DNA of 32,000 nucleotides from Candidatus Saccharimonadota bacterium (GCA_023898645.1 CP060232.1:150001-182000), one strand, 5' to 3'; positions 4,608-32,000 are shown, numbered from the stretch's first letter. Notes: a model not told the origin generated them from the sequence alone. Numbers and translations: made by a program.

Positions 4608-4931
4608 TTAGTCTGCTAACTCGTATCCTACGATGGAATTTTGCTGGTCGGTCAGCTCGAATGTTTTACGGATTGTTCCTTGAGTTTCTAGCTGGTGAAG
4701 CGCCTCGTTGGTGACGTAGTAGGGGTATTGAGAAAATGCAACGAGTTCCATCACGCTAAGGCTGGCGTGGCTTAAAGCTTTCACTATGTCCGCCCGGCTG
4801 GCGTCAATTAGTTCATGGTCTTGGTCGACGAAATTATCTTGTGTATATCGATAGCCTTCATTCATAACTTTAGTGTACAGCAAAGCTATGTAGAGTGCTG
4901 CTACCAAGAGCTCAGCGGAGAGCGTTTCCAC
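4608..4931 (-). CDS. small hypothetical protein immediately downstream of tailspike-like gene A
   Basis: 107-aa ORF with a GTG start at 4931 that overlaps the 3' end of the upstream gene by 31 nt. An alternative ATG at 4865 (MNEGYRY...) would remove the overlap. The product is soluble and helical-looking (ADIVKALSHASLSVMELVAFSQYPYYVTNEALHQLETQGTIRK), possibly a winged-helix-like fold. No confident family assignment. Confidence 0.5.
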   Translation of the reverse strand: METLSAELLVAALYIALLYTKVMNEGYRYTQDNFVDQDHELIDASRADIVKALSHASLSVMELVAFSQYPYYVTNEALHQLETQGTIRKTFELTDQQNSIVGYELAD

Positions 4932-7015
4932 GTATCGGTATCAATGCAGGTATAAATATAATCCGTATCATACGCGATTTGTCCCTTTACTCCAGGAGAC
5001 GATGCAGTAGCTGGTGGCGGTACGTTGGTCGTCGATAATCGCGTGAGATGCTGCCCCTTCCATCTACTGAAATTGTTGGTTGTTAGGCGAATAATATCAA
5101 CGCCGCCTGGTTCTGTGGTAAAAATTGGGTCTTGTCCGTCAATCCATTCGAATTCATAGGTAGAGCCAGCAAATGCAGTTGGTACAAAAAACGGAGCTAC
5201 AAAAATCGCATTTCCACCTGAATCAGGCTGTTTAATCCAGATATCAATCGTATTTACGCCAAATGGCGAATCACCACCCAGTATAGCGGAGGAGCCAGGT
5301 ACGGAGGCCATGGATGTTAAGCCGCCTAGGTCAAGACGCATTCTATACGTACCGGGCGTGGGTTCTAGAGCAAAAATTGAACCGTTTTCGATATAGAATA
5401 CGTATGTTGGATTCGGCGAACCAGGCACTCGCTCAAACACTTCAGTGGCTAGGCCCGCCCCACCAGTAAGGTTTGTTCCATCTATTGTCATCATAGGCAG
5501 GTCTTGTGATGCCAGTGCATTTTTAAACTCTACCGAATATCCGTTCTCGTCTTGGATCACCGAATTGATGTACCTTGCTTGCAAATGATAGACTTGCGAG
5601 TTACCTGCGCCTATAGATGGCAGCGCATCAAGCGCAGCTTGCACCTGAGATACCGTGGCATTGTAAGCTAGCGGAGAAGTTGTACTACCGCTATATGTCA
5701 GTGTAAAGGTACCCCCCGTCGCTTCTGTAATATAAATACCCTGGACTTCCCTTGTGGCGTCTAGATATTGGCCGCCCCGTGCTTGTGACACAAGCTGTAA
5801 TGATTGAAACGACTGTATCGTACCGGTTGAACCCAAGGACGGTGAATTTTTGAGCAAACCACCAAATGCAAACGTCCGAGGCGTAGCGTTACCTGGCTGA
5901 AATTGTGACCCAGAATATGGAATTAAGTTTATAGAACCTGATGCTGTTACCTTTGAGTTGATCTCCCAATAATTACCCGATCCTTGCATGAAATCATAGT
6001 GCGCAGTGCCGCCCGCGGTGCCAGACGTCTCCACGCCAATCTGCAATTCACCAGAGAAGCTGGCGGCATCCGCATCGTCTTTGCCTACACGGAACAGTAC
6101 GCCCGTATTGACACCTCCGACCGTACTCAGCTGACAATTACCGGTAAGCGTGACCGATGCGCCATTCATGGAAACCTTAGACCCGGCCGCACCAGAACGT
6201 AACACAAATGCATGTTGGTCGGGCTGAACGACAAACGATAACCAGTACTGCGAATAATCGAACGATCCGCTCGTCACGTTGCCGGTGTTCGACTCAAATA
6301 CAAAACATTCAGTACATTGATTGACGACGCATTCTATATAGGCACGCTCCGACCAGTATGTTTGGTTGTCACCCCAAAGACCGATACTGCCCGACTGGTT
6401 AAAACCAGATATCTCCACATCGGTGATACGCATACGCCAGATGTCGCCGTATCGGATTCCATAAGTGTTGCTGTTGCCGTTGTTCCATCCCAATATCGTC
6501 AAGCCGTGGGCGCCGCCGGCAGGTTTAGTGCCTGTCGTTGCGAACGTCTTGTTGCGAAATTCTAGGAACGCTCCCGCGCCACGATAATCAATAGACGTCA
6601 GGCCAGAACCCTGACCTAGAATCATTTGCTGCTCTTTTATGCATCTACTCGATGCATCGTTGAGACCGACAAATAACTTGTACGTACCTACACCAAAGAC
6701 GACTGCTCCCGCCTCCGATCCCATCGCCTCGTACGCATCAATAAGTGCTTGATTGGAATCATTGACACCCGTCGGATCTGCTCCGTAATCATCGATAAAA
6801 TACTGCTTTGGCATCGTAACGATGCCGGCATTATTGAGCTTCGTCTGCGTGGCGTTGTCGAGCTTGCTTTCGGTAATAGTGCCGTCTGCGATGCTCGTAG
6901 TTGTAACAACGGTATCTTTGAGCGTACCGTCAGGATTATGTGCCTGTGAAAGAAAATCATTGAGGATAGCACCCCAGGTGCCTGAATCACCGCCAGGGAC
7001 GGGGAGGCGAGACAT
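4901..7015 (-). CDS. tailspike-like protein A: shared N-terminal fibre module + pectate-lyase-like beta-helix + conserved C-terminal knob
   Basis: The track ORF is 4901..7084. I place the start at ATG 7015 (MSRLPVPGGDSGTWGAILNDFLSQAHNPDGTLKD) because all paralogues start at M-[AS]-R-L-P and a ggggg RBS lies 9 nt upstream. YFIDDYGADPTGVNDSNQALIDAYEA...VVFGVGTYKL matches the N-terminal signature of pectate_lyase_3/tailspike beta-helix proteins. The protein is collinear with paralogue B along its whole length. The C-terminus is SSPGVKGQIAYDTDYIYTCIDTDTWKRSPLSSW. Confidence 0.85.
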   Translation of the reverse strand: MSRLPVPGGDSGTWGAILNDFLSQAHNPDGTLKDTVVTTTSIADGTITESKLDNATQTKLNNAGIVTMPKQYFIDDYGADPTGVNDSNQALIDAYEAMGSEAGAVVFGVGTYKLFVGLNDASSRCIKEQQMILGQGSGLTSIDYRGAGAFLEFRNKTFATTGTKPAGGAHGLTILGWNNGNSNTYGIRYGDIWRMRITDVEISGFNQSGSIGLWGDNQTYWSERAYIECVVNQCTECFVFESNTGNVTSGSFDYSQYWLSFVVQPDQHAFVLRSGAAGSKVSMNGASVTLTGNCQLSTVGGVNTGVLFRVGKDDADAASFSGELQIGVETSGTAGGTAHYDFMQGSGNYWEINSKVTASGSINLIPYSGSQFQPGNATPRTFAFGGLLKNSPSLGSTGTIQSFQSLQLVSQARGGQYLDATREVQGIYITEATGGTFTLTYSGSTTSPLAYNATVSQVQAALDALPSIGAGNSQVYHLQARYINSVIQDENGYSVEFKNALASQDLPMMTIDGTNLTGGAGLATEVFERVPGSPNPTYVFYIENGSIFALEPTPGTYRMRLDLGGLTSMASVPGSSAILGGDSPFGVNTIDIWIKQPDSGGNAIFVAPFFVPTAFAGSTYEFEWIDGQDPIFTTEPGGVDIIRLTTNNFSRWKGQHLTRLSTTNVPPPATASSPGVKGQIAYDTDYIYTCIDTDTWKRSPLSSW

Positions 7016-7219
7016 CAGACAATACCCCCGATGTTCTCGAGAAAGGTAGCTCCATGCTTTTTTGTATGCATAAAACCTATGCATGAAAATTTATGGAGAC
7101 GTTGATGCAATTGTTGCTCTACAGCCATATACCCCGAAACTCTTTTGAATGTGTGTGTTGTTCGTTTCTATCTATATCATAAGGGTTATGTGGCCCAGAT
7201 ACAAGGAGGAGTTTATCTC

Positions 7220-7236
7220 GGTAGCGGCGACAGGGA
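7220..7236 (-). repeat. direct copy (16/17 nt) of the 3' end of the adjacent tRNA (possible att-like scar)
   Basis: The plus-strand sequence ggtagcGgcgacaggga at 7220-7236 compares with ggtagcAgcgacaggga at 7409-7425, which is the acceptor 3' strand plus T-stem 3' strand of the tRNA. Both copies have the same orientation and lie 172 nt apart. Confidence 0.5.
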
Positions 7237-7310
7237 CAGCGGTTGAGGCCTTTTTCGTTCGTTTGCTCAAGAAAATGCTTCGCGCTTTCTTTCACTTCAC
7301 TCACTGCACG

Positions 7311-7351
7311 TCCTGTGACTATCGTCAGGCAGGCTGACGATAGTCACAGGA
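7311..7351. other. perfect 18-bp stem / 5-nt loop hairpin downstream of the tRNA
   Basis: tcctgtgactatcgtcag-gcagg-ctgacgatagtcacagga. No U-tract follows on either strand, so it is not a classical intrinsic terminator. Confidence 0.6.
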
Positions 7352-7367
7352 TTATTACTAGTACAAT

Positions 7368-7412
7368 TACCAAAGTAAAACGGCCACTTTGGGTGACCGT
7401 CTTACTTTGGTA
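7368..7412. other. 16-bp (one mismatch) hairpin that includes the tRNA 3' CCA end
   Basis: taccaaagtaaaacgg (7368-7383) pairs with ccgtcttactttggta (7397-7412) around a 13-nt loop. The right arm overlaps the tRNA terminal ACCA. Confidence 0.5.
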
Positions 7413-7484
7413 GCAGCGACAGGGAATGATCCTGTGACCTCGAGCTTATGAGTCTCGCGCTCTAACCAACTGAGCTACGCTGCC
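7408..7484 (-). tRNA. tRNA with anticodon CAU (elongator Met-like; Ile2/lysidine type cannot be excluded), CCA encoded
   Basis: The reverse complement is GGCAGCG-TA-GCTC-AGTTGGTTA-GAGC-G-CGAGA-CTCATAA-GCTCG-AGGTC-ACAGG-ATCATTC-CCTGT-CGCTGCT-ACCA. It folds as a cloverleaf with a standard D-arm and the anticodon loop CU-CAU-AA. Oddities are a G1:U72 pair, an A31/G39 mismatch and an unusual T-loop (ATCATTC instead of TTCRANY). Confidence 0.8.
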
Positions 7485-7580
7485 ATAATATTTAGTTTGT
7501 CGTAAGGTGCAACCGTGCTGGTTTCAATAAATTAGACCAGTTGGTTAGAGCGTCTCGCGAATATTTACGCTCAAGGCTGT

Positions 7581-7599
7581 CCAACTGAGCTACGCTGCC
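7581..7599 (-). repeat. exact 19-nt direct copy of the tRNA 5' end (acceptor + D-arm), not a complete tRNA
   Basis: ccaactgagctacgctgcc occurs at both 7466-7484 (inside the tRNA) and 7581-7599. In addition, cagttggttagagcg at 7538-7552 is an inverted copy of tRNA positions 7458-7472. The upstream copy cannot close an acceptor stem. Confidence 0.6.
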
Positions 7600-7673
7600 T
7601 CGTCGGAATTCACTCGGAGTTCTCGCATCCAAACAAGTTTGAATGCTGGCACTCCTTCGTTATTCCTCCTCTC

Positions 7674-7727
7674 AATTTTACAAACAGCAAGCTTGGTTTG
7701 TAAAATTGGGGGCGAACAAGTTCGCCC
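7674..7727. promoter_or_regulatory. two adjacent perfect inverted repeats in the divergent tRNA/deaminase intergenic region
   Basis: aattttacaaac (7674-7685) and gtttgtaaaatt (7696-7707) form 12-bp arms with a 10-nt spacer containing aagctt. gggcgaac (7710-7717) and gttcgccc (7720-7727) form a second pair. The function (operator or RNA structure) is unknown. Confidence 0.35.
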
Positions 7728-7834
7728 GAACATCACGACTAAACGTCATAAATGCAAAAATTATTGTAACAGATACAGGGCAATATTGCGAGGGTTTGAG
7801 TATGTGTTACTATGGTGCAAAAAGGAGAGAGGGA

Positions 7835-8356: not shown

Positions 8357-8387
8357 CCAACGCGTCGAGTTATCAGTCGTTGCGTTT

Positions 8388-9377
8388 CTATCTAAATAAG
8401 ACTTTTTGTTGATTTTGAAGCGTTATTCTTAGGTCATTTAGTTCATGCGTAGGGTCAGAGGGTGGCGTGATGTAGTAAAGGGGAATGTCGGCTTCGAATT
8501 TTTCGAGCTTGTGGACATCCGCAACGGTGCCAATATAAGACGTCGTATATTTGTTTTGATCATTGGTTTTAACGGACTCGAGTAGTATTCGGTATGATTT
8601 TAAGAAATGTTTAGTTGTGCTCAGCATGTTTGCATAGACTTTGTCGTTGAGGCTGGCGTAGGGGACTTTTGGGTTTTTTGCTAAAAAGTCGGTGCAGTCT
8701 TTTGCTGCTTGGTCGTAGTCATCGAGAGTATTTATGTCGTTGAAGACCGTGGTTGAGCACATGATTGTAAAGTTTTTCAGAATCCTTTGAGTATCTATGA
8801 TGGGAATGAACTCTGTTTTATATGATTCAATCTTTTTGCTACTGTCGGCGTATGCTTGTTTGACAATAGCATCTCGCTGTACGGTTGGCGATGATTTGAG
8901 TTGACTGAGCGAGGCACTGTAGGCTTGGATATTTTTTAAGGAATCATTGATCCTTTTTATGGCGTCTGAATTTGAGGAAGAAGTTGACGAAGTTATGAAC
9001 GTCGCACTTGCCGTAGAAATGGCGGATCCGGTCGGGTGTATGATCGTCCAGTCGCTAGTGTCGTTGCTGATGGCTTTTATATTGTCGCTCATAGCCGCCG
9101 TTAGGGCAGCGGCATGTAAATAGTCTTCGTCTGGTATGCGAACAGCTGCAGAGTAGTAGCTAAAGCCAAGTGTGCCGAGTAGCAAAATACCTACAAAACT
9201 TGAAAAAACGACGACAAATAGCCCGCTCTTCTTTACTGTTGCGGGGTAGGTATCAACAGATTGGCTAACCTGCGCGAGCGGCTCAGCCGGAGCTGGGGCT
9301 GGCGTAGGAGCTTGAGTTAACTCCGGAGAAACTGGAGCAGCGTTTGGGTTTTGTTGATTCGGATCTTGGTTTTGCAT
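8388..9377 (-). CDS. single-pass membrane-anchored protein with Pro/Gln-rich N-terminal tail, hypothetical
   Basis: 329-aa ORF. The N-terminus is MQNQDPNQQNPNAAPVSPELTQAPTPAPAPAEP, followed by one TM segment (LFVVVFSSFVGILLLGTLGF) and a soluble domain of about 250 aa with no motif I recognise. Confidence 0.65.
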   Translation of the reverse strand: MQNQDPNQQNPNAAPVSPELTQAPTPAPAPAEPLAQVSQSVDTYPATVKKSGLFVVVFSSFVGILLLGTLGFSYYSAAVRIPDEDYLHAAALTAAMSDNIKAISNDTSDWTIIHPTGSAISTASATFITSSTSSSNSDAIKRINDSLKNIQAYSASLSQLKSSPTVQRDAIVKQAYADSSKKIESYKTEFIPIIDTQRILKNFTIMCSTTVFNDINTLDDYDQAAKDCTDFLAKNPKVPYASLNDKVYANMLSTTKHFLKSYRILLESVKTNDQNKYTTSYIGTVADVHKLEKFEADIPLYYITPPSDPTHELNDLRITLQNQQKVLFR

Positions 9378-9446
9378 ACTTTTTGTTTACTATGTGTAGC
9401 TACGGCCAGTGTATCAGTTACCAGGGCATTTACAAAGAGCGAGGTA

Positions 9447-9480
9447 CAAAAACAACCCGTCAAAGACAGGTTGTTTTTTA
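9447..9480 (-). terminator. rho-independent terminator (reads as a hairpin plus T/A-tract in both directions)
   Basis: aaaaacaacc-cgtcaaagaca-ggttgtttttt. It lies 14 nt downstream of the stop of the minus-strand gene 9494..10000. Confidence 0.6.
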
Positions 9481-9493
9481 ATGACGAATCTAC

Positions 9494-10000: not shown

Positions 10001-10099
10001 ACGAAACCCCCTACTGCCCACCACGTTACAAATTATGTATGGAGTGATTGTAGCATGTTTTAGCTTATGTTCAAGGTTCTTGTAGGCTATACTCATAAC

Positions 10100-10390
10100 A
10101 TGAGCAAGCCAAAAGCCGACGACGTCGTTAAAGACAAGAGTGTCTTGTATAGATTGACGCTTGTTGCGGCGGTCGTGCAGCCGCTAATGACTTTGCCGCA
10201 GGCAATCCAGCTGTATTCTAGCCACGACGCGCATGGCCTGTCGCTCTTGACATGGTTCGGCTACACGTCTGTCGGGCTGGTTTTTCTGGCCTATAGCATC
10301 AAATATCGGCTGAGGCCAATTATCATTCAGCAAACCCTCTGGTTTATCTTGCAATCAAGCGTCGTGGTTGGCATCGTCGTTTGGCAGTAA
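10100..10390 (+). CDS. PQ-loop / SemiSWEET-like small transporter (3 TM)
   Basis: The start is ATG 10100 within track ORF 10067..10390. The 96-aa protein has three hydrophobic helices and the PQ motif after TM1 (VVQPLMTLPQAIQLYSSHDAHGLSLLTWFGY). This is the size and layout of bacterial SemiSWEETs. Confidence 0.55.
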   Translation: MSKPKADDVVKDKSVLYRLTLVAAVVQPLMTLPQAIQLYSSHDAHGLSLLTWFGYTSVGLVFLAYSIKYRLRPIIIQQTLWFILQSSVVVGIVVWQ

Positions 10391-10408
10391 TGTAAAGTTT
10401 ACTTTACA
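10391..10408. promoter_or_regulatory. palindromic operator TGTAAAGT-tt-ACTTTACA upstream of the XRE regulator
   Basis: Perfect 8-bp arms with a 2-nt spacer, ending 6 nt before the ATG at 10415. The same half-site recurs at 11002-11025. Confidence 0.55.
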
Positions 10409-10414
10409 AGTCGT

Positions 10415-10648
10415 ATGTCTTACACTGGTCGCATGGGAGCAAAAGAACACGTTAATAGTAATCTGGCCAAATATCGGCGAATGTCCGGTTTGACGCAGGA
10501 GCAACTGGCGTTGCATGTGAATGTTACGCGCCAGACTATAATTGCTATAGAAAAGGGCAATTACGTACCATCGGTGCTGTTGGCGCTTAAAATAGCAAAA
10601 GTGTTCAATACATCCGTGGAAAGGATTTTCTACTATGAAGATAAATAA
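10415..10648 (+). CDS. XRE/Cro-C1-type helix-turn-helix transcriptional regulator (short YozG-like type)
   Basis: LAKYRRMSGLTQEQLALHVNVTRQTIIAIEKGNYVPSVLLALKIAKVFNTSVERIFYYE is a textbook HTH_3 pattern (Q-x-x-L-A...S/T-R-x-x-I-x-x-I-E-x-G). An alternative start lies at 10433. Confidence 0.85.
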   Translation: MSYTGRMGAKEHVNSNLAKYRRMSGLTQEQLALHVNVTRQTIIAIEKGNYVPSVLLALKIAKVFNTSVERIFYYEDK

Positions 10649-13067: not shown

Positions 13068-13331
13068 CTACGAATCGTCATCGTCTTCGTCGAGATCTTC
13101 AATGTATTCGCGTTCGTCATCGCGAATATCAATGTCGTCGGGGTATTCGTCATCGTCGAGGTCATCTATGTCTTCTTTGTCTAGCTCTTCTTTGAACTTA
13201 CTTGATGGTATTCCGAAAATCTTCGCCGGATCTTCTCCCATTTCATCCATGAGCGGGTCGGACGCATTGTCGTCTGTCGTTAGATCATCTTGGTAACTTT
13301 GTAGTTGAAAATCGTCGTCGTTTACTGCCAT
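13068..13331 (-). CDS. extremely acidic small protein (87 aa), hypothetical
   Basis: A strong RBS aggaggg lies 5 nt before the ATG. By my count there are 28 Asp and 10 Glu in 87 residues (44% acidic). The Ser-rich ORF on the opposite strand is its low-complexity shadow. Confidence 0.65.
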   Translation of the reverse strand: MAVNDDDFQLQSYQDDLTTDDNASDPLMDEMGEDPAKIFGIPSSKFKEELDKEDIDDLDDDEYPDDIDIRDDEREYIEDLDEDDDDS

Positions 13332-18704: not shown

Positions 18705-20648
18705 ATGGCACGATTACCGATTCCTGGGGGCGACAAGGGTAACTGGGGAACAATTCTTAATGACTTTCTCACGCAATCACATAAATCTGACGGGAAATTA
18801 AAGGATGACTCTGTAGGTGCGGCTCAGCTGCAAGATAACGCGGTGACGGCGAGTGCGATTGCGCCGAATGCAATTACCGTTACTGAATTGGCAGGGGATT
18901 CCGTCGACACGACGGTAATTGCGGACGGATCGATTACGAGCGCCAAAATCGCTGACGGTACGATCGTCACAGGTGACATATCTCCGGCTGCTGGTATTGT
19001 AAAATCACAACTCTCATCAAGCGTGCAGGCATCTCTTGATAAAGCCGACACTGCATTGCAGTCAGGAACGTCCGTAAGCAGCATTTCGGGCTTTCCGTTG
19101 AGGTTACCGGGCGAAAAGGCAGTCGCAGTGGCACAAGAAGTCGCAGTTGCAAGGGCAGAAGTGAGCAATCCTGCCGGCCATAAGGTTGTTGTTCTCGCGG
19201 AAACTTGGGGTAAGCCGGGTATATTGAAGCATATTTGGGTGGCGGTAGATAATTCTGCGACGGTCGACGGGTTTTTGGAGCAAGGCGGTGTCATAAGGGT
19301 GTACACCGACGATGACACAACTCCGGCAATCTCAATGTCGCTTGGTGATTTCTTTTGTTTGGCAAATCGATCTGATGTTTTTGAAACACCACGTGTCGGC
19401 AGGTCTAATAGAGGTAGTGGAGGTTCGGCCTATCGCTATCTGCATATGCCATTTCAAAAGTATCTTCGAGTTGAGATTGAAAGTCTTATGGGTACAGACT
19501 CGGCTTTTTATGGCACCGCAGATTATTCATTAGTCGATTCGTTCAGCGATCTTGGAACGCAGCAGCTCGCCTATAGTATAAAAGGTCAACGAGTTGCAAG
19601 CCAGGCAGTGCAAACCCCCATGACGGTGTGTGATTTTGATGGTTCGGGGCAGATTGAATCATTGGTCGTGAGTTTTGCGGGTGCCGACAATGGAGACTGG
19701 GGCGTGCTCGAGGGCGATATTCAGGTATACGTAGATGGCGAGCAATTCCCTATATGGTCATCGTCTGGCATGGAGGATGCCTTTAATGGTGGTTGGTATG
19801 CAACACCAATCGGTGGTTATCCTGCTGGTCGTTCTGGTGATTCCGACCAGTCTGGTGTTAATATGACGATGTATAGATTTTTCCTTGATGATCCGATTTT
19901 CTATTCATCACACCTGAAGGTTGTGGCATGGGCAGGGCAGCCGGGTCAGGGAGGTATTGTTTCTGCGACGGTTGATTTTGCCGGCTATGTGGGCGTGTGG
20001 TCGTCGGCTGCAACAACGCCAAGCTACACAGCGGTTGACGGAATATCGCCACCCGTACTTAACGATCAGATGGACCAGACTGCAGGCGCGCTTGACTCTG
20101 GCACATGGAATCAAGACGGCACTCGCACCCAAATGGTGGCGACTGGTTCGACTTTTACAGTGCCATATGGTAGTGCAAGCGCCGATCAAGATGTACGAGC
20201 AGCGCGTAAAAACGTCTCATTACCTTCGGATTATTGGCTGGAAACAAAAGTTCGCATAACAGACCCTTCTCATGATAATCAAGAGGCGTTGCTTGTTATG
20301 CTCGGAGCCACACCTGATCCATATTTTGGCTCTGCGGTACACATAGGACTTCGACGATACGAGCAATACAACTGGCATATACAGCTTCGTGACGACTTTG
20401 ATACACCATTTGACGTGACGATTGGGGGAGGTTTGGATCTTACGAATATGTGGGCTCGGTTGGCTCTAAAGAAACAGGGTTCGAAAATCACTGGTTATTA
20501 TTCGTTGAATGATACTCCCTCTCCTTGGATTCCTCTTGGTACCTGGGACGCATCTAAAGTCGGAACCGGCTTTGGAATTGCTACATGGACTGCAGGTGCT
20601 GAGTTTGACTATCTAGTTGTTCGTCCTCTCGAAGATGTCACTAGCTAA
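18705..20648 (+). CDS. tail-fibre-like protein C: shared N-terminal module + DUF2961/GH172-like jelly-roll + C-terminal LamG/ConA-like domain
   Basis: The N-terminus is MARLPIPGGDKGNWGTILNDFLTQSHKSDGKLKD, followed by fibre-type repeats (AIAPNAITVTELAGDSVDTTVIADGSITSAKIADGTIV). The middle region carries GILKHIWVAV...VIRVYTDDDTTPAISMSLGDFF, YRYLHMPFQKYLRVEIE, WGVLEGDIQVYVDGEQFPIWSSSGMEDAFNGGW and MYRFFLDDPIFYSSHLKV. These follow the conserved blocks I recall for DUF2961 (PF11175, GH172). The C-terminal ~150 aa (YWLETKVRI...WARLALKKQGSKITGYYS...WIPLG) look LamG-like. Confidence 0.8.
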   Translation: MARLPIPGGDKGNWGTILNDFLTQSHKSDGKLKDDSVGAAQLQDNAVTASAIAPNAITVTELAGDSVDTTVIADGSITSAKIADGTIVTGDISPAAGIVKSQLSSSVQASLDKADTALQSGTSVSSISGFPLRLPGEKAVAVAQEVAVARAEVSNPAGHKVVVLAETWGKPGILKHIWVAVDNSATVDGFLEQGGVIRVYTDDDTTPAISMSLGDFFCLANRSDVFETPRVGRSNRGSGGSAYRYLHMPFQKYLRVEIESLMGTDSAFYGTADYSLVDSFSDLGTQQLAYSIKGQRVASQAVQTPMTVCDFDGSGQIESLVVSFAGADNGDWGVLEGDIQVYVDGEQFPIWSSSGMEDAFNGGWYATPIGGYPAGRSGDSDQSGVNMTMYRFFLDDPIFYSSHLKVVAWAGQPGQGGIVSATVDFAGYVGVWSSAATTPSYTAVDGISPPVLNDQMDQTAGALDSGTWNQDGTRTQMVATGSTFTVPYGSASADQDVRAARKNVSLPSDYWLETKVRITDPSHDNQEALLVMLGATPDPYFGSAVHIGLRRYEQYNWHIQLRDDFDTPFDVTIGGGLDLTNMWARLALKKQGSKITGYYSLNDTPSPWIPLGTWDASKVGTGFGIATWTAGAEFDYLVVRPLEDVTS

Positions 20649-25454: not shown

Positions 25455-25475
25455 CTTTGCGTAAAAATTATACAA

Positions 25476-25508
25476 ATAGGCGCGATCAATACGCGCCTAT
25501 TTCTTCAT
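25476..25508 (+). terminator. rho-independent terminator
   Basis: ataggcgcg-atcaata-cgcgcctat forms a 9-bp GC-rich stem (25476-25500) and is followed by ttcttcattt. Confidence 0.75.
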
Positions 25509-25537
25509 TTGCCCCTCTCCCATATTTCCCGTATACT
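25509..25537 (+). promoter_or_regulatory. sigma70-like promoter of fibre gene D (TTGCCC-17 nt-TATACT), conserved upstream of gene E
   Basis: The -35 is ttgccc at 25509-25514 and the -10 is tatact at 25532-25537, separated by a 17-nt spacer. The block ttcatTTGnnC...ttcccgTATACTnaacctnntaaacnataagcact is shared with 29190-29250. Confidence 0.5.
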
Positions 25538-25590: not shown

Positions 25591-28470
25591 ATGGCACGTC
25601 TTCCAACTCCTGGAGGAGATAGTGGTAATTGGGGAACAATACTCAACACCTTTCTCTCTCAGGTTCACGCCTCTGACGGCACACTCAAAACCGACAGTGT
25701 CACCAGCGACGCCATTGCTCCGAATGCCGTAACTTCCAGTGCTCTTGCTCCCAACGCAGTCGATGCCATCACTATAGCTGATGGCTCTATCACCGAAACA
25801 CTCCTCGATACTGCAGTTCAAACCAAACTCAATGCGACTGCTCCAGTCACATCCGTAGCATCCAAGACTGGTGATGTCTCCCTCACCAAGACCGACGTTG
25901 GTCTTGATCAGGTCGACAACACCAGTGATGCGACGAAGAATAGTGCGACGGCGACGCTGACGAATAAGACGTTGACAGGGCCGACGATTGATAGTCCTTC
26001 TCTGATAGGAAATATCACGGGTGCCGCTTCAATTGGCGTGGTCGCCGGCTCTGTATCAGGGCTTTATCTATCTGCTACGACTGGCGTGGGGACACTAGGA
26101 GCTGTACGAGTGCTGTCGTCTACAGGCGCAAATGGCCTAGCCCAGTTGGGTGTAAACGGTAACCAAACAGCTTCTAGTGGTACGCAATTCGGTATCGCTA
26201 TCACTTCAAACATAAACCAGTCGTCGACTGCTGGCTATACAGCTCTCCTTGTGAACCCAACTGAAACAGCAACTGGTTCCGGAACCAAAAGGCTGATCGA
26301 CGCTCAGGTAGGAGGCACATCCAAGTTTGTAGTGGACAACGCCGGGAATGTGACACTAGGAAGCACGACAATCGCCGCTGGCCCCACCCCACTGAACGTT
26401 AGTTTAGGGGGTTCTTACGGCAATAGCACTGCGGGCAGTAGCAATAACATGAAGCTGGCGCTATACAATGATAGCAGCGTCAAACTTGGATTTGGCGTTT
26501 CGCTAAATACACTTGAATATCAAGTCAATTCGCTTTCCTCACACAAGTTCTACGTCGGCGGTACTGAGCGTTTAGCTATCTCGTCTTCTAGCATGACCGT
26601 GGGTGGTGTACCTGTAGTCACAACATCAGACACTCAGACGTTAACGAATAAGACGCTGACAAGCCCGACATTTACTGGAACAATCACCGGGGTGGCAGAC
26701 GCGACTACTACTGGGTCTGGCAAGGTTGTTACCGGCGGTGTGTTAAGTACCCAGCCAGATGCCAACTCTACATCCATGCTGGCAATTCCAGGATTGTACA
26801 ATGACCTTTCATATTGTCTGATGCGTGCTGGTGCTTCCATGACCATTACCAAAAATGGCGGTGCGACGGTAGCGGGAGTCGATTACCTTTATCCCGATGC
26901 CATGTTTGCACCACAGGGCATGACGTATCTCAATGGTTTGGTAAACGGTGACGTGTTTGTCATAGAGGTTACCGCTCCGAGCGGCTTGACCATGGACTAT
27001 GTCAATACATACGGGATTTCATGCTCTAACAGCTTCCGCGCAAGCAACGTGACCATCGAGGTGTATTTCAATGGAGCGTGGACTTCCATCCATTCGGTGA
27101 CTAATCAGACTGCTGGAGATGTATGGAAGTTCTATTCTAGCGGTGCATACTCAGTGACCAAGATTCGGTACACACTGACTAACTTCCCTTATAATCAGTG
27201 CCGCATTTTCTCCTTGTACGCAATAACCGGCACAACTGCGTTGGCGTCGGGTCCATTGCTACCACGGACCGGTGGTGCCTTGTATGGCACTAATGCTGCG
27301 CCACCAACACTGACAGCTACCGGTGCCGATGCTAGCATCAATCTCAATCTTGTCCCGAAAGGATCAGGAACTGTCCAAGCAAATGGTGTCGAGGTCGCGA
27401 CTATTTCTGGCACGCAAACACTCACAAATAAGACATTGACAAGCCCGACGCTGACTACGCCGAGGACGGCCTCTATCATGGACACGAACGGCAATTGGGC
27501 ATTCATGATAAATGCCACCACCAACGCTATCAATTATTTGCAGGTCATCAACAGTGCGACTGGAAGCGCTGTTCGCATAAATGCAGCAGGTAGCGACACG
27601 AACATTAGCATGAATTTGGTACCTAAGGGCACTGGAGTGATTCAGGCTAATGGCGCTGAGGTGGCGACCACCACCGGCACACAGACACTGTCGAACAAGA
27701 CCTTGGTGAGTCCTACGATTACTGGCACCCCCACTGGAGTTGCCAGGCAAGCTCAGGTCGATGTATTCACACCTCTGGGCGCGAACTATGTCACCGATAA
27801 ACAGGTGTCCTCAAACGTAGTAACTCTTACTACACTCACAGCACACGGCTATCAGGTTGGCGACAAGGTTTGGATCAACGGCATTGATTCCGCGATCGAA
27901 TTAAACCTAGTTACCTCGGTGACTATCACTTCGATTCCGACAGCCACTACATTTACTTTTGCTAGAAGTGTCGCTGACATAGCCCCTGCAACCGTGCGGC
28001 CCTACGGAAACGTGTTTCAACTTCAGACATGGACGAAACCGTCCGGTGCTGTTTCGGTGAAGTTCACATTATGCGGTCCAGGTGGCGGTGGTGGATCTGG
28101 TGCGAGGCGAGCTACCACGTCAAACCGTACCGGCGGTGGCGGTGGCGGTGGCGGGGGTTGGCAAGAAGTTACTGTTCCTGCGTCGGACGTGCCCGACACT
28201 GCGATGTTCGTTAGCGTCCCCGCCGGGGCTTACGGCGGTCTGCCCGTCACTACGGATGACACGGACGGAATGGTCGGCGGGAGAAGCTATCACTCGACTC
28301 GCGTCAGCAACCTTGAAATTTCGTATCTGTCCACGCTTAACTTTAACGCCAATCCGGGTTACGGCGGGCTGGGTGGCAGCACCGGAACAACCGTCGCTGG
28401 AGGCGGAGGCGCCGTCAATACTCAGTTTGCGGTGCCGGTGGAGCGGGCAACACTAGCAACGGGAGCATAG
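25591..28470 (+). CDS. giant tail-fibre-like protein D, main reading frame (shared N-module, fibre repeats, start of glycine-rich domain); interrupted near its 3' end
   Basis: The N-terminus is MARLPTPGGDSGNWGTILNTFLSQVHASDGTLKTD. It contains VGLDQVDNTSDATKNSATATLTNKTL (a phage-fibre-type motif) and a recurring TQTL[TS]NKTL[TV]SPT motif, including an 89-aa-period duplicate (27337-27450 and 27604-27717). The glycine-rich domain starts at FTLCGPGGGGGSG...GGGGGGGGGWQEVTV. The frame ends at TAG 28468-28470, in the middle of that domain. Confidence 0.85.
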   Translation: MARLPTPGGDSGNWGTILNTFLSQVHASDGTLKTDSVTSDAIAPNAVTSSALAPNAVDAITIADGSITETLLDTAVQTKLNATAPVTSVASKTGDVSLTKTDVGLDQVDNTSDATKNSATATLTNKTLTGPTIDSPSLIGNITGAASIGVVAGSVSGLYLSATTGVGTLGAVRVLSSTGANGLAQLGVNGNQTASSGTQFGIAITSNINQSSTAGYTALLVNPTETATGSGTKRLIDAQVGGTSKFVVDNAGNVTLGSTTIAAGPTPLNVSLGGSYGNSTAGSSNNMKLALYNDSSVKLGFGVSLNTLEYQVNSLSSHKFYVGGTERLAISSSSMTVGGVPVVTTSDTQTLTNKTLTSPTFTGTITGVADATTTGSGKVVTGGVLSTQPDANSTSMLAIPGLYNDLSYCLMRAGASMTITKNGGATVAGVDYLYPDAMFAPQGMTYLNGLVNGDVFVIEVTAPSGLTMDYVNTYGISCSNSFRASNVTIEVYFNGAWTSIHSVTNQTAGDVWKFYSSGAYSVTKIRYTLTNFPYNQCRIFSLYAITGTTALASGPLLPRTGGALYGTNAAPPTLTATGADASINLNLVPKGSGTVQANGVEVATISGTQTLTNKTLTSPTLTTPRTASIMDTNGNWAFMINATTNAINYLQVINSATGSAVRINAAGSDTNISMNLVPKGTGVIQANGAEVATTTGTQTLSNKTLVSPTITGTPTGVARQAQVDVFTPLGANYVTDKQVSSNVVTLTTLTAHGYQVGDKVWINGIDSAIELNLVTSVTITSIPTATTFTFARSVADIAPATVRPYGNVFQLQTWTKPSGAVSVKFTLCGPGGGGGSGARRATTSNRTGGGGGGGGGWQEVTVPASDVPDTAMFVSVPAGAYGGLPVTTDDTDGMVGGRSYHSTRVSNLEISYLSTLNFNANPGYGGLGGSTGTTVAGGGGAVNTQFAVPVERATLATGA

Positions 28471-28850
28471 GCGCGAACGCGACCTACGTCGGTGGTGGCG
28501 GTGGTGGTGGCGGCGGAGCGGCGGCGAGCTCTACGTCATCGGCGGCTGGAGGCGGCGCAGCGTCAATCTTCGCTGTACGCAGCCTTTCTGGTACCTTCGT
28601 CTCTCCAGGAAACGGCACCTTGACAATGGACGCCACTACCAACACTTCCTACTACCCGGTCATACCTGGACTGCCGGGGATTGGTGGTGGCGGCGGAGCG
28701 TACAAGACCGCGACCAATGGCGGCAACGGAGGTGACGCAACCAACTACAACGCTGGCGGCGGTGGTGGCGGGGCGTCTGACAACGGCTACCAGAGCGGTG
28801 CGGGCGGCAAAGGCGCAGACGGTTGCGTAGTCATTACTACCTATTTTTAA
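28431..28850 (+). pseudogene. C-terminal continuation of fibre gene D in the -1 frame (rest of the glycine-rich domain)
   Basis: The frame with codons starting at positions divisible by 3 is open from 28347 to TAA 28848-28850. It has no ATG or GTG start before TTG 28620. From about 28431 it reads GAGGAGNTSNGSIGANATYVGGGGGGGGGAAASS...GIGGGGGAYKTATNGGNGGDATNYNAGGGGGGASDNGYQSGAGGKGADGCVVITTYF. This continues the Gly-rich domain and ends with the typical G-x-x-G-x-V-[VI]-I-x-x-[YF] terminus. One missing base, or a -1 shift, near 28418-28432 would fuse it to 25591..28470. Confidence 0.7.
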
Positions 28851-28984
28851 AGACAAGCTCATAAGCAAACTTTTTAATGTAAAAACTACGCTTTTTGACG
28901 TTTTAAGTGATTGACACAGTCTTTATTACTTCATATACTATAGCCAACCGTGGGCGCCAATATATAACTGAAAAAGGAGGAAAT

Positions 28985-29140
28985 ATGGATATTTCAAGTA
29001 TTACTGACGCTAAAGAACTAAAAGCACTTGCATACGACACACTACAGGCAGTTGAAGTACAGCAAAACAATCTACGCCTTATTCAGCAGCGTATCGCTGA
29101 AATCGAGCAGCAGGCACAAGAGACAGAAAAGAAGAAGTAG
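28985..29140 (+). CDS. small coiled-coil protein (51 aa) between fibre genes D and E
   Basis: A strong RBS aaggagg lies 5 nt before ATG 28985; the track ORF 28907..29140 is an upstream extension. The product is MDISSITDAKELKALAYDTLQAVEVQQNNLRLIQQRIAEIEQQAQETEKKK, which is heptad-like and charged. A terminator follows. Confidence 0.6.
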   Translation: MDISSITDAKELKALAYDTLQAVEVQQNNLRLIQQRIAEIEQQAQETEKKK

Positions 29141-29158
29141 TCACAATTGATATCGAAT

Positions 29159-29197
29159 AGACGCGTATAGTCAGCGATTATACGCGTCTTTCATTTG
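29159..29197 (+). terminator. rho-independent terminator
   Basis: agacgcgtata-gtcagcgat-tatacgcgtct forms an 11-bp stem (29159-29189) and is followed by ttcatttg. It is positionally equivalent to the terminator at 25476. Confidence 0.75.
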
Positions 29198-29223
29198 AAC
29201 TCACCTCAATCTTCCCGTATACT
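29195..29223 (+). promoter_or_regulatory. sigma70-like promoter of fibre gene E (TTGAAC-17 nt-TATACT)
   Basis: The -35 is ttgaac at 29195-29200 and the -10 is tatact at 29218-29223, separated by a 17-nt spacer. It is homologous to the block upstream of gene D. Confidence 0.5.
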
Positions 29224-29284
29224 AAACCTGTAAACTATAAGCACTTTACAAGTGAGGGTACTAATAGGAGCAATATAGAAATTT

Positions 29285-30127
29285 ATGGCACGTCTTCCAA
29301 CTCCTGGAGGAGACAGTGGCAATTGGGGATCAATCCTCAACGACTATCTTTCTCAGGTCCACGCCCCTGACGGCACACTCAAAACAGACAGTGTCACCAG
29401 CGACGCCATTGCTCCTAATGCCATTGATTCTATAGCCATCGCCGATGGCTCTATCACCGAAACGTTGCTTGATACGGCGGTTCAAACCAAACTTAATACC
29501 GTCGCACCCGTCACTAGCGTTGCCGCTAAGACCGGTGACGTCACGCTCATCAAGTCCGACGTCGGTCTAGATCAAGTCGACAACACAAGTGACGCCACTA
29601 AAAACAGCGCTACGGCAACCTTGCAGAACAAGACTCTCGATAACAGTAATAGTCTTACGCTCAAAGACGCTAATCTTACCATTCAAGACGACAGCGATAC
29701 TTCAAAGCAAGCAAAGCTTCAGCTCTCCGGTATTACCACGGGCACAACGCGCACGTATACACTCCCTGACGCCTCAGGTACGGTGGCGCTGACGAGCCTC
29801 ATCCCTCCTATTCGTTTTTCTGCTCCGACTGCAGTCGTAGGCGTCACGCCGACTGACTATGCGTATGGTCCACGGACGCTAACTGGCGCACATATGCGCG
29901 TGGCGAGCGCTCCGGTCGGGTCTGATCTTGTCGCCGAGGTTCAACATTGGGATGGTTACTCTTGGTCGACACTATGCACACTCACCGTATCTGATGGGTC
30001 GGTCACAGAAGCTACCTCCAGCCTTTCTCAGCAGCAGTCAGCCGGGAACATGGTACGCCTTAATGTGACATCGGTCGGGGGCAATTCCGCTGCAACTGGA
30101 GTTGCCGTAGACGTAGAGGTAGATTAA
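29285..30127 (+). CDS. short tail-fibre-like protein E (shared N-module + small beta-rich C-terminal domain)
   Basis: The N-terminus is MARLPTPGGDSGNWGSILNDYLSQVHAPDGTLKTD. The first ~115 aa are near-identical to gene D apart from an 8-aa indel. It contains VGLDQVDNTSDATKNSATATLQNKTL and TRTYTLPDASGTVAL (a phage-fibre-type motif). Its stop TAA (30125-30127) overlaps the next ATG (TAATG). Confidence 0.85.
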   Translation: MARLPTPGGDSGNWGSILNDYLSQVHAPDGTLKTDSVTSDAIAPNAIDSIAIADGSITETLLDTAVQTKLNTVAPVTSVAAKTGDVTLIKSDVGLDQVDNTSDATKNSATATLQNKTLDNSNSLTLKDANLTIQDDSDTSKQAKLQLSGITTGTTRTYTLPDASGTVALTSLIPPIRFSAPTAVVGVTPTDYAYGPRTLTGAHMRVASAPVGSDLVAEVQHWDGYSWSTLCTLTVSDGSVTEATSSLSQQQSAGNMVRLNVTSVGGNSAATGVAVDVEVD

Positions 30128-32000
30128 TGGCTAAGGCTAGCACGCTTAGTGAGACTTTTGATTCCTATAATACCCTGGTGTGGTATCGGTCGAACGCAAC
30201 GAATGTCGCCTACACAGGTGGTCAGCTTAAGCTTACACCAACAACGTCCTACCATTATCTCGATACTTTTACTGGGTATGACTTGACCGAATCACACTAT
30301 CAAGTTGAGTTTGTTCAAAACTGCAACGCGGGAAACCACGACTCGATAACGACTAATTTTACGGTTGTAGTAGACGGTAGTAATAGCTTTGAGTTTGAGA
30401 TTGGCGGCGGTCCGACTGGCTCGGTGGTTATGCGCGAGCAAGTGGCTGGAGTTAATTCTGAAACAACGACGACATATGATGCTACCAATTTTCGATGGCT
30501 ACGTTTGCGAGAGTCGGGAGGTACGATTTATTGGGAGACATCGCCAGATGGGTCGACATGGACTATCCAGCGGTCAAAAACCTCATCGCTAACACTGGCA
30601 TCGACAAATGTGATGTTGTCATGCGGCCGTTGGACATCGGAAACATCGCCAGGTAACTCTTATTTTGACAACCTAAATCCCGGCTCGCCTACGGCAACTC
30701 TGACTGACGATTTCAGTACAGAGGATACCATCAAGTGGACAGGATATGAAGGCAACGTCGCTTCCGTTGTCGATGGTCGCCTAGCGTTATCGGGCGCTAC
30801 ATCGGACTACTACCCGCCTTTAGAATCGGTGAGTACCTATGTGTTTACGGGCTCCTACGTTGCGTGTCAGTTTGTTGAAAACTTCCCCGAGGGAAATGGT
30901 AGTTACACATTGGAATTTTATGTAGGTAGCGATACGAACAACCGAATTGAATTTCAGATTAATGGCGGTAGTCTTGGTATTTCAATGAAAGAAAAGGTGG
31001 CAGGAGTAGTGTCTTCTAGTGATTTGATATACAACCCGCTGCGACACAAATGGTTACGCATGCGCGAGTCAGGCGGGACGGTATATTGGGAAACCTCGAT
31101 AGACAGCGCGACATGGGTCGAACGTTGGTCGAAAGCCACTACATTGAATCTCAATAACGTCACCATCGGCTTTAACGGTGGATATTACGGTACTGAAACA
31201 GGCAGTCCTGTCGCCTTGTTTGATAATTTCAATCTTATTGCCGGGACAAACATTGGCTACGATGAACCGCTACCTATCTCGCTGCTTACCGATGAATTTA
31301 CTACCCTTGATGGTTCAAAGTGGTATGCGCCGCCTGAATATAGTATTAGTGCAGTGGACAGTGTGTTATCTATACCTGTCGTGCCGAATGACTATCATTA
31401 CATAAATACCAATGACACTTGGAATTTAATTGGTGATTCCTTGTTGCTTGAATTGGTTCAGAACGCCAACCGTGGATCATCTCAGTATGGCACCATCACT
31501 ACTGAAATAGCCGTCATTGTAGATGCCACGAATCGGGTTCAATTCATGATTGGCGGTGGCAATGGATCGGAGATTAAGTTGCGCGAGGTCGTTGATGGCA
31601 CGCCGTCAGACACGACGATTATTTATGACCAAACTTTACATCGTTGGTTTCGAATTCGAGAAAATAGCGGAGCTGTTTACTGGGAGACTTCCAAGGACGG
31701 TGCAGTATGGAACATCCAACGGTCAAAATCCACCACGCTTGATTTGTCTAGTGTGAAAGTGCAGTTTACGGTGGGTTCGTATGAGAACGAAGTCGACCCA
31801 GGTACTGTACTGATTGACAATGTTAATCTTCCTAACACTGCTTTGCAAGCGCAGATAGGATGGTACGTTAATTCGCTTCCGCTAGGGGCGACTGATGGCG
31901 GTACGATACAGCCGAAAAATTTCTTTCAGCAAGCCGATTGGCTATGGAAACCAATTCCAGATAATCCGGTGCTCGATCCAATGTCGGCACTTTGGGGTGC
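30127..32000 (+). CDS. large protein F with three tandem ConA/LamG-like jelly-roll repeats; 3'-truncated by the window end
   Basis: Absent from the ORF track because there is no stop in the window. I translated frame 1 from ATG 30127 through 32000 (624 codons) and found no stop. The product is MAKASTLSETFDSYNTLVWYRSN... with three repeats. Each contains F-[RHK]-W-[LF]-R-[LMI]-R-E-[SN]-[GS]-G-x-[IV]-Y-W-E-T-S-x-D-[GS]-x-x-W and ends in [FI]-D-N-[LFV]-N-L. It is start/stop-coupled to gene E. Confidence 0.8.
   Translation, partial: MAKASTLSETFDSYNTLVWYRSNATNVAYTGGQLKLTPTTSYHYLDTFTGYDLTESHYQVEFVQNCNAGNHDSITTNFTVVVDGSNSFEFEIGGGPTGSVVMREQVAGVNSETTTTYDATNFRWLRLRESGGTIYWETSPDGSTWTIQRSKTSSLTLASTNVMLSCGRWTSETSPGNSYFDNLNPGSPTATLTDDFSTEDTIKWTGYEGNVASVVDGRLALSGATSDYYPPLESVSTYVFTGSYVACQFVENFPEGNGSYTLEFYVGSDTNNRIEFQINGGSLGISMKEKVAGVVSSSDLIYNPLRHKWLRMRESGGTVYWETSIDSATWVERWSKATTLNLNNVTIGFNGGYYGTETGSPVALFDNFNLIAGTNIGYDEPLPISLLTDEFTTLDGSKWYAPPEYSISAVDSVLSIPVVPNDYHYINTNDTWNLIGDSLLLELVQNANRGSSQYGTITTEIAVIVDATNRVQFMIGGGNGSEIKLREVVDGTPSDTTIIYDQTLHRWFRIRENSGAVYWETSKDGAVWNIQRSKSTTLDLSSVKVQFTVGSYENEVDPGTVLIDNVNLPNTALQAQIGWYVNSLPLGATDGGTIQPKNFFQQADWLWKPIPDNPVLDPMSALWG
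30139..31830 (+). repeat. three tandem protein-domain repeats (about 180-185 aa each) inside gene F
   Basis: Repeat 1 is 30139-30678 (STLSETF...SYFDNLN). Repeat 2 is 30694-31236 (ATLTDDF...ALFDNFNL). Repeat 3 is 31276-31830 (ISLLTDEF...VLIDNVNL). The repeats are divergent at the nucleotide level but have a conserved motif order at the protein level. Confidence 0.8.

Follow-up and report, generated by a model that had tools for sequence, protein, structure and literature searches.

Phage tail fibre-like genes sharing a short N-terminal module in a Candidatus Saccharimonadota chromosome

Modular phage tailspikes such as the CBA120 TSPs, those of K1-5 and SP6, and proteins with T7 gp17-type adaptors join a conserved N-terminal anchor to interchangeable depolymerase or binding heads; the known anchors are 100-150 amino acids (aa) or longer and are located in virions. 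The same modular logic was found in five genes (A to E) of a Candidatus Saccharimonadota bacterium, which are cellular and open with one common module of only 34 aa (the N-module), and a sixth gene (F) is coupled to E. All six lie in a stretch of 32,000 nucleotides (nt) from GCA_023898645.1 (CP060232.1:150001-182000), referred to here as the window, in which positions are counted from the first letter. The genome is near-complete at ~1.1 Mb and of the Saccharibacteria type, which belongs to the candidate phyla radiation (CPR, Patescibacteria). Among the factors by which ultrasmall CPR epibionts may select and enter their hosts, only pili are well supported to date.

In function, the nearest analogue is the mosaic adhesive trimer (MAT) family of Bdellovibrio, which consists of 21 phage-like trimeric fibres with a conserved N-domain and mosaic tips that are displayed on the predator surface and bind prey glycans (Caulton et al. 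2024, PMC10769870). Common to both systems are a predatory or parasitic bearer, many paralogous phage-fibre-like proteins with one conserved end and swapped C-terminal tips, and genes that are dispersed in the chromosome; in MAT, the tips are TNF/C1q-like, lectin or beta-helix domains used to recognise prey surface glycans. The A-F family is not a member of MAT. MAT proteins have a Sec signal peptide and a conserved, beta-rich N-domain of ~130 aa, whereas A-E have no signal and a 34-aa module predicted to form a helix and hairpin, and no sequence relationship was detected between the N-terminal parts. No S74 chaperone-protease domain was seen in the A-F family. Bdellovibrio is a Gram-negative predator, whereas the bacterium studied here is a monoderm-like CPR epibiont of Actinobacteria with heads apparently taken from actinophages. 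Paralogy and mosaic heads are matched in the A-F family, and a trimeric state is suggested there by analogy with the C1q-like head of E and with the published trimer of MycGH172, a Saccharibacteria enzyme described below.

Actinophage minor tail proteins share stalk repeats, a ~55-aa domain, a glycine-rich head, F-type repeats and a C-terminal motif with A-F, but the A-F genes are in a cellular chromosome among housekeeping genes and without virion genes. Fibre families derived from phage receptor-binding proteins are a known kind in bacterial predators and parasites; the Saccharibacteria family defined by the N-module appears to be an undescribed one.

The explanation we favour, with a probability of about 0.55, is that these genes encode domesticated phage-derived trimeric fibres and enzymes that recognise the envelope of the actinobacterial host and digest it locally. 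Each protein would comprise the 34-aa module, a fibrous stalk of repeats as in phage tail fibres, and a swappable head that binds or degrades envelope polymers. The heads and stalks would be those of actinophage tail proteins, the target would be the actinobacterial (mycolata-type) envelope during epibiotic attachment, and the N-module would be inherited from phage tail fibres and would serve, most likely, to start trimer formation and/or to attach the fibre to a single conserved partner. Use on the host envelope is the most likely role of the proteins because the head and stalk modules recur in tail proteins of phages of Actinobacteria, the hosts of Saccharibacteria. What was established is the family itself, its modular architecture, its chromosomal residence, the interchangeable heads, the affinity to actinophages, the intact GH172 active site and the lack of Sec signals; from these we infer deployment at the surface, targeting of the host and the role of the module.

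The gene family and its N-module

The genes, their parts and the module positions are listed below. Genes A, B, C and E were defined by open reading frame (ORF) and translation, D by ORF and Gly_rich_2 match, and the modules by alignment.

Gene A: 4901-7015, minus strand, 704 aa; module at aa 1-34, short linker, putative parallel beta-helix at aa ~70-330, 'cage'-homologous domain at aa ~421-511, C-terminal motif
Gene B: 16414-18621, plus strand, 735 aa, GTG start
Gene C: 18705-20648, plus strand, 647 aa; module, tail-fibre-type repeats at aa ~30-125, GH172 domain at aa ~164-415 (nt ~19194-19949), C-terminal domain of ~220 aa
Gene D: 25591-28470 as the annotated ORF, 25591-28850 with the frameshifted tail, plus strand; module, long fibre repeats, glycine-rich head (Gly_rich_2, PF21722)
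Gene E: 29285-30127, plus strand, 280 aa; module, stalk in common with D, predicted C1q/TNF-like jelly-roll head at aa ~170-280 (nt ~29792-30124)
Gene F: 30127-32000 and past the window end, plus strand, 895 aa in full, no N-module
N-module of A: 6914-7015, minus strand, aa 1-34, MSRLPVPGGDSGTWGAILNDFLSQAHNPDGTLKD
N-module of B: 16414-16515, plus strand
N-module of C: 18705-18806, plus strand
N-module of D: 25591-25692, plus strand
N-module of E: 29285-29386, plus strand

The first-pass annotation, which was made from the window alone, had reported five genes with the same N-terminal sequence. These were recovered as ORFs at the same coordinates with the N-termini it quoted. When their first 38 aa are aligned, 21 of the 38 columns are invariant and the mean column identity is 83%. 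The start of A was placed at 7015 by the family alignment and not at the upstream ATG at 7084. The proteins diverge from about residue 34, with two pairs as exceptions: A and B are paralogous over their full length (51% identity), and D and E have about the first 125 aa in common. The three internal motifs that had been quoted are all present in the proteins. Total family span was 12,242 nt of the window when D was extended to 28850, in agreement with the 12,244 nt given earlier.

Third-codon identity over the module is 11-14 of 34 among A, B, C and D/E, compared with 28 of 34 for D versus E, and the module appears to be kept by purifying selection. These values rule out gene conversion as the source of the common N-termini for A, B and C versus D/E; recent gene conversion would account for the D/E duplication only. 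That duplication is recent, and ~90 nt of 5' sequence was duplicated with it. Beyond the module itself, the D/E duplication and the C-termini of A and B, no direct repeats were found in the window. A target of a diversity-generating retroelement (Mtd-like) was ruled out, as window scans gave no template/variable repeat pair and no reverse-transcriptase domain. Guanine-plus-cytosine content of the module genes, overall and at third codon positions, is native to the genome.

No signal peptide, lipobox or transmembrane segment was found in A-F, where the maximum 19-residue Kyte-Doolittle value is <=1.5 compared with 2.5-2.9 in three membrane proteins of the window; within the first 58 aa, which include the module, the value is <=0.69, and there is no Sec signal in the module region. 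The earlier statement that no Sec or lipoprotein signal peptide could be recognised is upheld by these values and extends to F.

The extent of the family was determined with an exhaustive search of a module profile against 1.84 billion representative proteins (clusters at 50% identity), which gave 6,196 clusters at E<=1e-3 and 3,452 at E<=1e-10. The N-terminal likeness is not chance, because so many proteins match at the stricter cut-off in a set of this size. Among the best 150 matches, the module is at or near residue 1 in all, and the protein lengths are 53-1,422 aa; among the 305 module proteins retrieved, it begins at residue 1 in 299, and position 2 is a small residue. A scan of GTDB (one genome per species) gave 86 relatives, nearly all from Saccharibacteria/Saccharimonadia, with many loci in several genomes and tandem pairs or triplets at many loci. 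Copy numbers per Saccharibacteria genome are at least 2-11, which are lower bounds. The carriers outside Saccharibacteria in the same scan were a few Chloroflexi metagenome-assembled genomes (MAGs), short contigs of proteobacterial bins, and the isolate Gordonia aichiensis. In phages, the module was found in 6 of 50,697 records, all of them Streptomyces phages of ~113-116 kb (five distinct phages), and there were three weak matches among 2.9 million viral contigs. The search of related genomes and phage databases that the first-pass annotation had proposed was carried out, and the module has thousands of relatives, is abundant in Saccharibacteria and is rare in phages.

No Pfam, NCBIfam, PHROG or PDB entry covered module residues 1-34 in sequence and profile searches, and the exact database entry of E has no precomputed Pfam domain; the module does not map to an already characterised family in these resources. 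No description of the module family was found in the literature on Saccharibacteria tail fibres, minor tail proteins and surface fibres. Judged by these searches, the N-module appears to define a very large, previously undescribed family. Other members join the module to a GDSL/SGNH esterase, a polysaccharide deacetylase, a pectate-lyase-like domain, Gly_rich_2, or collagen, PTR or DUF5907 repeats. The heads are interchangeable on one N-module, with GH172, GDSL esterase, deacetylase, pectate-lyase-like, glycine-rich, collagen and C1q-like types.

Stalks and heads

Protein C matched PF11175 (GH172/DUF2961) with E=5.3e-34 and 118.2 bits (cut-off 27), and the PDB entries 4kq7, 7v1v, 8ah3 and 8ic8. 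Its residues E336, E357, D358 and W364 align with E270, E291, D292 and W298 of alphaFFase1 with the same 21-residue spacing; this set comprises the catalytic acid/base Glu, the nucleophile Glu, and the adjacent Asp and Trp. By these sequence criteria, C is a bona fide GH172 with an intact active site. More than 40 full-length orthologues of C were found in Saccharibacteria at 49-81% identity. In their precomputed annotation, PF28589 and PF28588 (GH172_1st) are listed before PF11175, and PF28589 apparently spans the N-terminal ~20% of C-type proteins.

GH172 enzymes include exo-alpha-D-arabinofuranosidases whose substrate is the D-arabinan found in mycobacterial arabinogalactan and lipoarabinomannan (LAM). 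Ca. Mycosynbacter amalyticus, a cultured Saccharibacterium that parasitises Gordonia, has an enzyme of this family, MycGH172, which acts on both polymers and forms a trimer with subunits of ~67 kDa (PMC10115798). C with its 647 aa fits the MycGH172 subunit in size and may be its orthologue, neither protein has a secretion signal, and the activity of C is a prediction from sequence. The characterised Bacteroidota and Bifidobacterium enzymes are stand-alone hexamers or dodecamers with no fibre-like N-terminal extension, whereas C carries, besides the catalytic domain, the N-module, repeats of tail-fibre type and a further domain at its C-terminus. A GH172 protein with 52% identity to the C head and an unrelated N-terminus is encoded in Mycolicibacterium sp. 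S2-37 (JAFEVR010000004, 435512-457491), in a region that, with RNR, HNH, Ku, dGTP diphosphohydrolase and dozens of ORFs of 40-100 aa, resembles a large mycobacteriophage or prophage. This relationship suggests that heads were exchanged between mycobacteriophages and Saccharibacteria.

MycGH172 was 'predicted to not be secreted', and a cytoplasmic role was proposed (PMC10115798). By extension, the A-F proteins would be enzymes or lectins of the cytoplasm that act on oligosaccharides taken up from the host, and their fibre parts would be evolutionary baggage. The lack of export signals in A-F and the published interpretation of MycGH172 agree with this, but collagen and tail-fibre repeats and C1q-like, glycine-rich and tailspike-like domains are extracellular adhesion architectures, many members, E for example, have no enzymatic domain at all, and more than 10 paralogues with swapped heads in a genome of ~1 Mb point to recognition. 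A cytoplasmic role for the family is considered very unlikely.

A and B matched PDB 9d93, the mycobacteriophage 'tail tip cage gp23', as a profile (E=1.4e-12) through a repeated domain of ~55 residues; in A, this homologous domain (GGTFTL...YNAS...VQAAL) is at aa ~421-511. By tblastn, the 9d93 segment was found in 273 Mycobacterium smegmatis phage records, in a minor tail protein. The C-terminal motif of A and B is also common to phage tail proteins. B is a paralogue of A with an additional tail-fibre repeat (TKGDIYVAAG...GQVLTADSS) after the module. A parallel beta-helix is weakly supported in A and B: there were matches to PF12708 at E=0.05 and to a phi29 pre-neck-appendage PHROG at E=0.002 and 34% identity over aa 1-138 to a Streptomyces phage protein, the AlphaFold2 model of A was poor (predicted local distance difference test, pLDDT, of 42 from a 5-sequence alignment), and the top Foldseek matches of this low-confidence model were all parallel beta-helix tailspikes or lyases, none of them significant.

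The AlphaFold2 model of E has a mean pLDDT of 82 and >95 in the head, with a long, poorly structured stalk, and its N-module is predicted to begin with a low-confidence tip (residues 1-12) and to continue as a helix (residues 13-25) and then a short hairpin. Among the best Foldseek neighbours of the head were the tail fibre of Agrobacterium phage 7-7-1, the lambda tail tip and C1q heads; viral collagen and tail-fibre proteins and minor tail proteins of Gordonia and Mycobacterium phages were matched as well, and the tip of Bdellovibrio Bd2734 was a weak match at rank 50. By this model, E is a short fibre with a C1q/TNF-like head. Structural modelling, which had been suggested earlier as a check, was informative for E and its fibre-head matches and gave a poor model for A. 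Some relatives of E carry PF26209.

D matched phrog_13892, a minor tail protein family. Its glycine-rich head is interrupted by a frameshift near 28405-28430; the +2 frame is open over 28347-28850 and ends with GKGADGCVVITTYF and the stop at 28850. Gly_rich_2 matched D as annotated over positions 6-114 of 226 only, and the conceptually repaired D over positions 7-225 of 226 with E=2.4e-14. The frameshift could mark a genuine pseudogene, be programmed, or stem from an error in the assembly. Two homologous elements upstream of D and E were recorded as pattern matches only:

25474-25537, plus strand, upstream of D: terminator-like hairpin, then promoter-like site TTGCCC-17-TATACT (consensus scan)
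29159-29223, plus strand: element homologous to that of D, upstream of E (direct repeat)

The coupling of F to E that the first-pass annotation had described is exact, with the ATG of F starting within the TAA stop of E (TAATG, 30125-30129), and the two genes are translationally coupled. F contains about three repeats of ~195 aa related to actinophage minor tail and glycoside-hydrolase proteins, and matched phrog_14065 with E=8e-52.

The PHROG matches of A-E were to tail fibre, minor tail and tail protein families, none of them over the module. In tblastn searches of all phage genomes, A matched 216 records (Mycobacterium 207, Streptomyces 6, Microbacterium 3), D matched 63 (Mycobacterium 26, Arthrobacter 16, Gordonia 13, the remainder Clavibacter, Curtobacterium, Streptomyces and 2 Vibrio), and F matched 62 (Mycobacterium 28, Gordonia 22, Streptomyces 12) with no other phage hosts. 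Most of these matches are in genes annotated as minor tail proteins, and the phage matches cover just 13-46% of each protein. On this evidence, the distal parts appear to have counterparts almost exclusively in tail proteins of actinophages, whose hosts belong to the same phylum, Actinobacteria, as the hosts of Saccharibacteria.

Of the distal domain labels given in the first-pass annotation, GH172, the glycine-rich head and the beta head of E (C1q/TNF-like) held, the beta-helix was weakly supported, and 'LamG-like' found no support. For the C-terminus of C and the repeats of F, neither PDB sequence searches nor BLASTP supported the LamG-like label, and the only Pfam matches were weak and sub-threshold (DUF1349 and RET_CLD1).

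Chromosomal setting

The family is set among core genes in the window. The neighbours are cellular and encode GH38, a deaminase, tRNA-Met, a DipZ-like thiol-disulfide protein, dinB, tilS, ftsH and murJ, with lepA downstream of F, and the loci are separated by dinB, tilS-ftsH-murJ and DipZ as had been described. The segment 17030-20871 is 99.3% identical to a contig of Candidatus Saccharibacteria MAG HKST-UBA63, in line with the earlier suggestion of a reduced bacterium of epibiotic type. Pfam and PHROG scans of the window gave no capsid, terminase, portal, tape-measure, lysis or integrase genes, and there are no flanking direct repeats or att sites in it. Among 148 neighbours sampled at 55 other loci, most are housekeeping genes (NUDIX, GrpE, HrcA, ribosomal protein S2, RRF, tRNA synthetases, MurJ, TatC, NDK), with only scattered integrase, portal-like and tail-like matches; the claim that the genes are set among core genes and not in a prophage holds at these loci as well. 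A-E are homologous to tail-fibre and minor tail proteins, and no phage or prophage gene context was found for them.

Neighbours were also clustered all-vs-all with 747 ORFs from 78 genome loci. No non-module family was found beside module genes in more than 5 of the 78 loci, which indicates that there is no dedicated adjacent partner or chaperone, and genes for a sheath, tube, baseplate or tape measure were absent from the window and did not recur near module genes in the 78 loci.

A slot with the order dinB-[1-3 module genes]-tilS-ftsH is conserved across Saccharibacteria, and the heads in it differ. In JAUPWL010000011 the order is dinB-B-A-C-tilS, with the B-like gene directly after dinB; another locus (L025) has dinB...C-tilS-ftsH, and a third (L027) has a module gene of 925 aa followed by tilS-ftsH. 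The A-like gene in JAUPWL010000011 is between the B-like and C-like genes, whereas A in the window is 9 kb off on the opposite strand beside the deaminase and tRNA-Met genes, which implies a local rearrangement. The tRNA-Met gene (7408-7484, minus strand) is ~390 nt upstream of A on the same strand, with no integrase or att repeat near it; tRNA-Met genes ~94% identical to it are also found near module genes at three other loci (L066, L075 and L079).

A prophage or phage contig was ruled out by the lack of hallmark genes, the core neighbours, the conserved synteny and the native composition; the structural genes and att sites that would mark a prophage are absent from the window. The family is chromosomal and long resident with local turnover and is not prophage cargo, and vertical maintenance in Saccharibacteria is part of the favoured explanation. 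The genes could be non-functional or selfish relics of degraded prophages, or decoy fibres encoded by the bacterium that poison the assembly of infecting phages. The phage ancestry of all the modules, the frameshift in D, the tRNA-Met genes near A and near module genes elsewhere, and the few integrase, portal-like and tail-like neighbours at other loci could be read in this way, but the ORFs are long and intact, the module is apparently under purifying selection, full-length orthologues at 49-81% identity are found in many genomes, the chromosomal position is conserved with native composition, the GH172 active site is intact, and the window has no att sites or phage hallmark genes. Relics or decoys are the least credible of the explanations considered, with hardly any weight given to them. 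These rivals and the cytoplasmic role above are less likely because of the fibre architectures, purifying selection, conserved orthology and synteny.

Module function, export and significance

Cultured phages with the module number five, all of Streptomyces: Alone3, BRock, LuckySocke, GiJojo and pSt2308. In these, the module gene is in a tRNA-rich accessory arm (~30 tRNA genes), beside genes for a peptidase and a TerD-like protein and well away from the main tail module. The BRock gene is annotated as a collagen-repeat protein with an annotated start that is upstream of the module and overlaps tRNA-Lys, and at least one further annotated minor tail gene is in the same accessory arm. A divergent module (49% identity) is present in a 172-aa protein at 10001-10519 of the podovirus-like viral contig IMGVR_UViG_3300029813_000040, where the upstream order is scaffold/protease, major head (E=3e-73), tail tubular (E=5e-47), a 560-aa ORF, HNH and then the module gene, which is roughly at the usual place of a tail-fibre gene in such phages. 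An origin of the module in phage tail fibres is plausible. The module is likely to be primarily structural, in trimer nucleation and/or attachment, and not an export signal, because phage proteins need no secretion.

Alternatively, as the first-pass annotation had also allowed for a domesticated tail-like particle, the A-E proteins may be the receptor-binding proteins of a machine resembling a tail or tube that is either anchored to the cell or released and is encoded elsewhere in the genome, such as the Mycosynbacter lance or a tailocin-like particle, with the module as the plug by which the fibres dock. Such a machine would be assembled in the cytoplasm, and no Sec signal would be needed, as is seen in A-F. 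The module is at the N-terminus of phage proteins, both in the Streptomyces phages and in the podovirus-like contig after the head and tail-tubular genes, and a short, strongly conserved N-terminal peptide suits a single conserved partner. In Mycosynbacter, a wastewater Saccharibacterium, a lance of 9 nm x 70 nm with a barbed tip becomes a conduit into Gordonia, and its composition is unknown (PMC11880426). Nevertheless, no tube, sheath, tape-measure or baseplate gene came with the module genes in the window or repeatedly in the 78 loci, the Streptomyces phage gene is among tRNAs outside the tail module, and the lance might equally be a type IV secretion system (T4SS) pilus. A tail-like machine is regarded as a doubtful explanation.

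Another reading of the N-module is as a Sec-independent export or targeting signal, perhaps read by the Patescibacterial T4SS, by which the fibres, folded or unfolded, are carried out or into the host. Epibiotic growth depends on this T4SS, for which no substrate is known (PMC12102498). The position of the module strictly at residue 1 (299 of 305) with a small residue at position 2 would suit such a signal, as would the lack of a Sec signal in all six proteins despite their extracellular-type architectures. In Gordonia aichiensis NBRC 108223 (NZ_BANR01000036), a 735-aa protein with a typical N-module has a TrwB/VirD4-like coupling ATPase ~4 kb upstream, and Pfam gave no match for any other neighbour; a prophage tail cluster was ruled out at this locus, where the TrwB-like ATPase is the sole annotated neighbour. 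However, known T4SS signals are usually C-terminal, the same module is present in phage proteins that need no secretion, and the Gordonia locus is a single neighbourhood coincidence with no co-localisation with virB4. An export signal is an improbable explanation.

For domesticated fibres and enzymes acting on the host envelope, export is the main difficulty, because no signal peptide or anchor is present. Three routes are conceivable and are non-exclusive. The fibres could dock onto a machine assembled in the cytoplasm, such as the lance, could be recognised by the T4SS, or could associate with pili. A preprint remarks in passing that, in CPR genomes, the Pam pilus operon and ATP synthase genes are consistently accompanied by a 'tail fibre-like protein' (bioRxiv 10.64898/2026.03.03.709456). 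At one locus (L059), ATP synthase beta (4007-5575) is directly upstream of a module gene (6001-6486), which echoes that remark.

Several further points weigh against envelope-directed fibres. With no signal peptide, lipobox or transmembrane segment, surface exposure requires another export route. The published view of MycGH172 is that of a non-secreted, cytoplasmic enzyme (PMC10115798), and MycGH172 may not carry the module. A host prophage adsorbs to TM7x, a member of Saccharibacteria (PMC13578794). Actinophage likeness does not alone prove that the host is the target, because actinophage-type receptor-binding proteins could bind Saccharibacteria themselves. No conserved partner or chaperone gene adjoins the module genes, D is frameshifted, and neither the beta-helix of A and B nor the fold of the N-module is established by the models.

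The first-pass annotation had proposed a toolkit for recognition and attack of the host-cell surface, and the interchangeable actinophage-like heads and the GH172 domain fit that part of its proposal. Its reading is borne out in part: a toolkit of this kind, with heads that can be exchanged, has good support, but the N-module as a docking adaptor and a cell-encoded structure to receive it are hypothetical. A bolder version, in which the 34-aa module is a universal plug or tag that loads actinophage-derived fibres and enzymes onto a host-penetration organelle (lance/conduit or T4SS), is unlikely at present. If true, the cell would carry an anchored device for injection or feeding that is armed with phage fibres and has a host-range cassette that can be swapped.

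The family offers candidates for host choice and entry in the form of thousands of chromosomal phage-derived fibres and enzymes with heads like those of the hosts' own phages, and at least one head type, GH172, belongs to an enzyme class that is proven to act on the cell wall of mycolata. If host range is determined by the heads, genomes would allow host specificity to be predicted, and the host range of foam-controlling Saccharibacteria such as Mycosynbacter could be engineered. Extracellular-type architectures without a Sec signal, combined with an invariant N-terminal tag, pose a problem of cell biology; its solution could uncover a novel mechanism of export or docking and show what the lance is made of. 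The family would be a large-scale case of a cellular parasite that domesticated receptor-binding modules from the viruses of its host.

Three further genes of the window were recorded. An 87-aa ORF at 13068-13331 (minus strand) is extremely acidic (Asp/Glu-rich) and has no family match. The ORF at 8388-9377 (minus strand, 329 aa) has a Pro/Gln/Ala-rich N-terminus followed by one hydrophobic segment, also with no family match. The GH38 gene (alpha-mannosidase family, 919 aa, 1297-4056, plus strand) is ~850 nt from A; lipomannan and LAM of Actinobacteria are built on mannan cores, and GH38 might be part of the same repertoire for processing host glycans.

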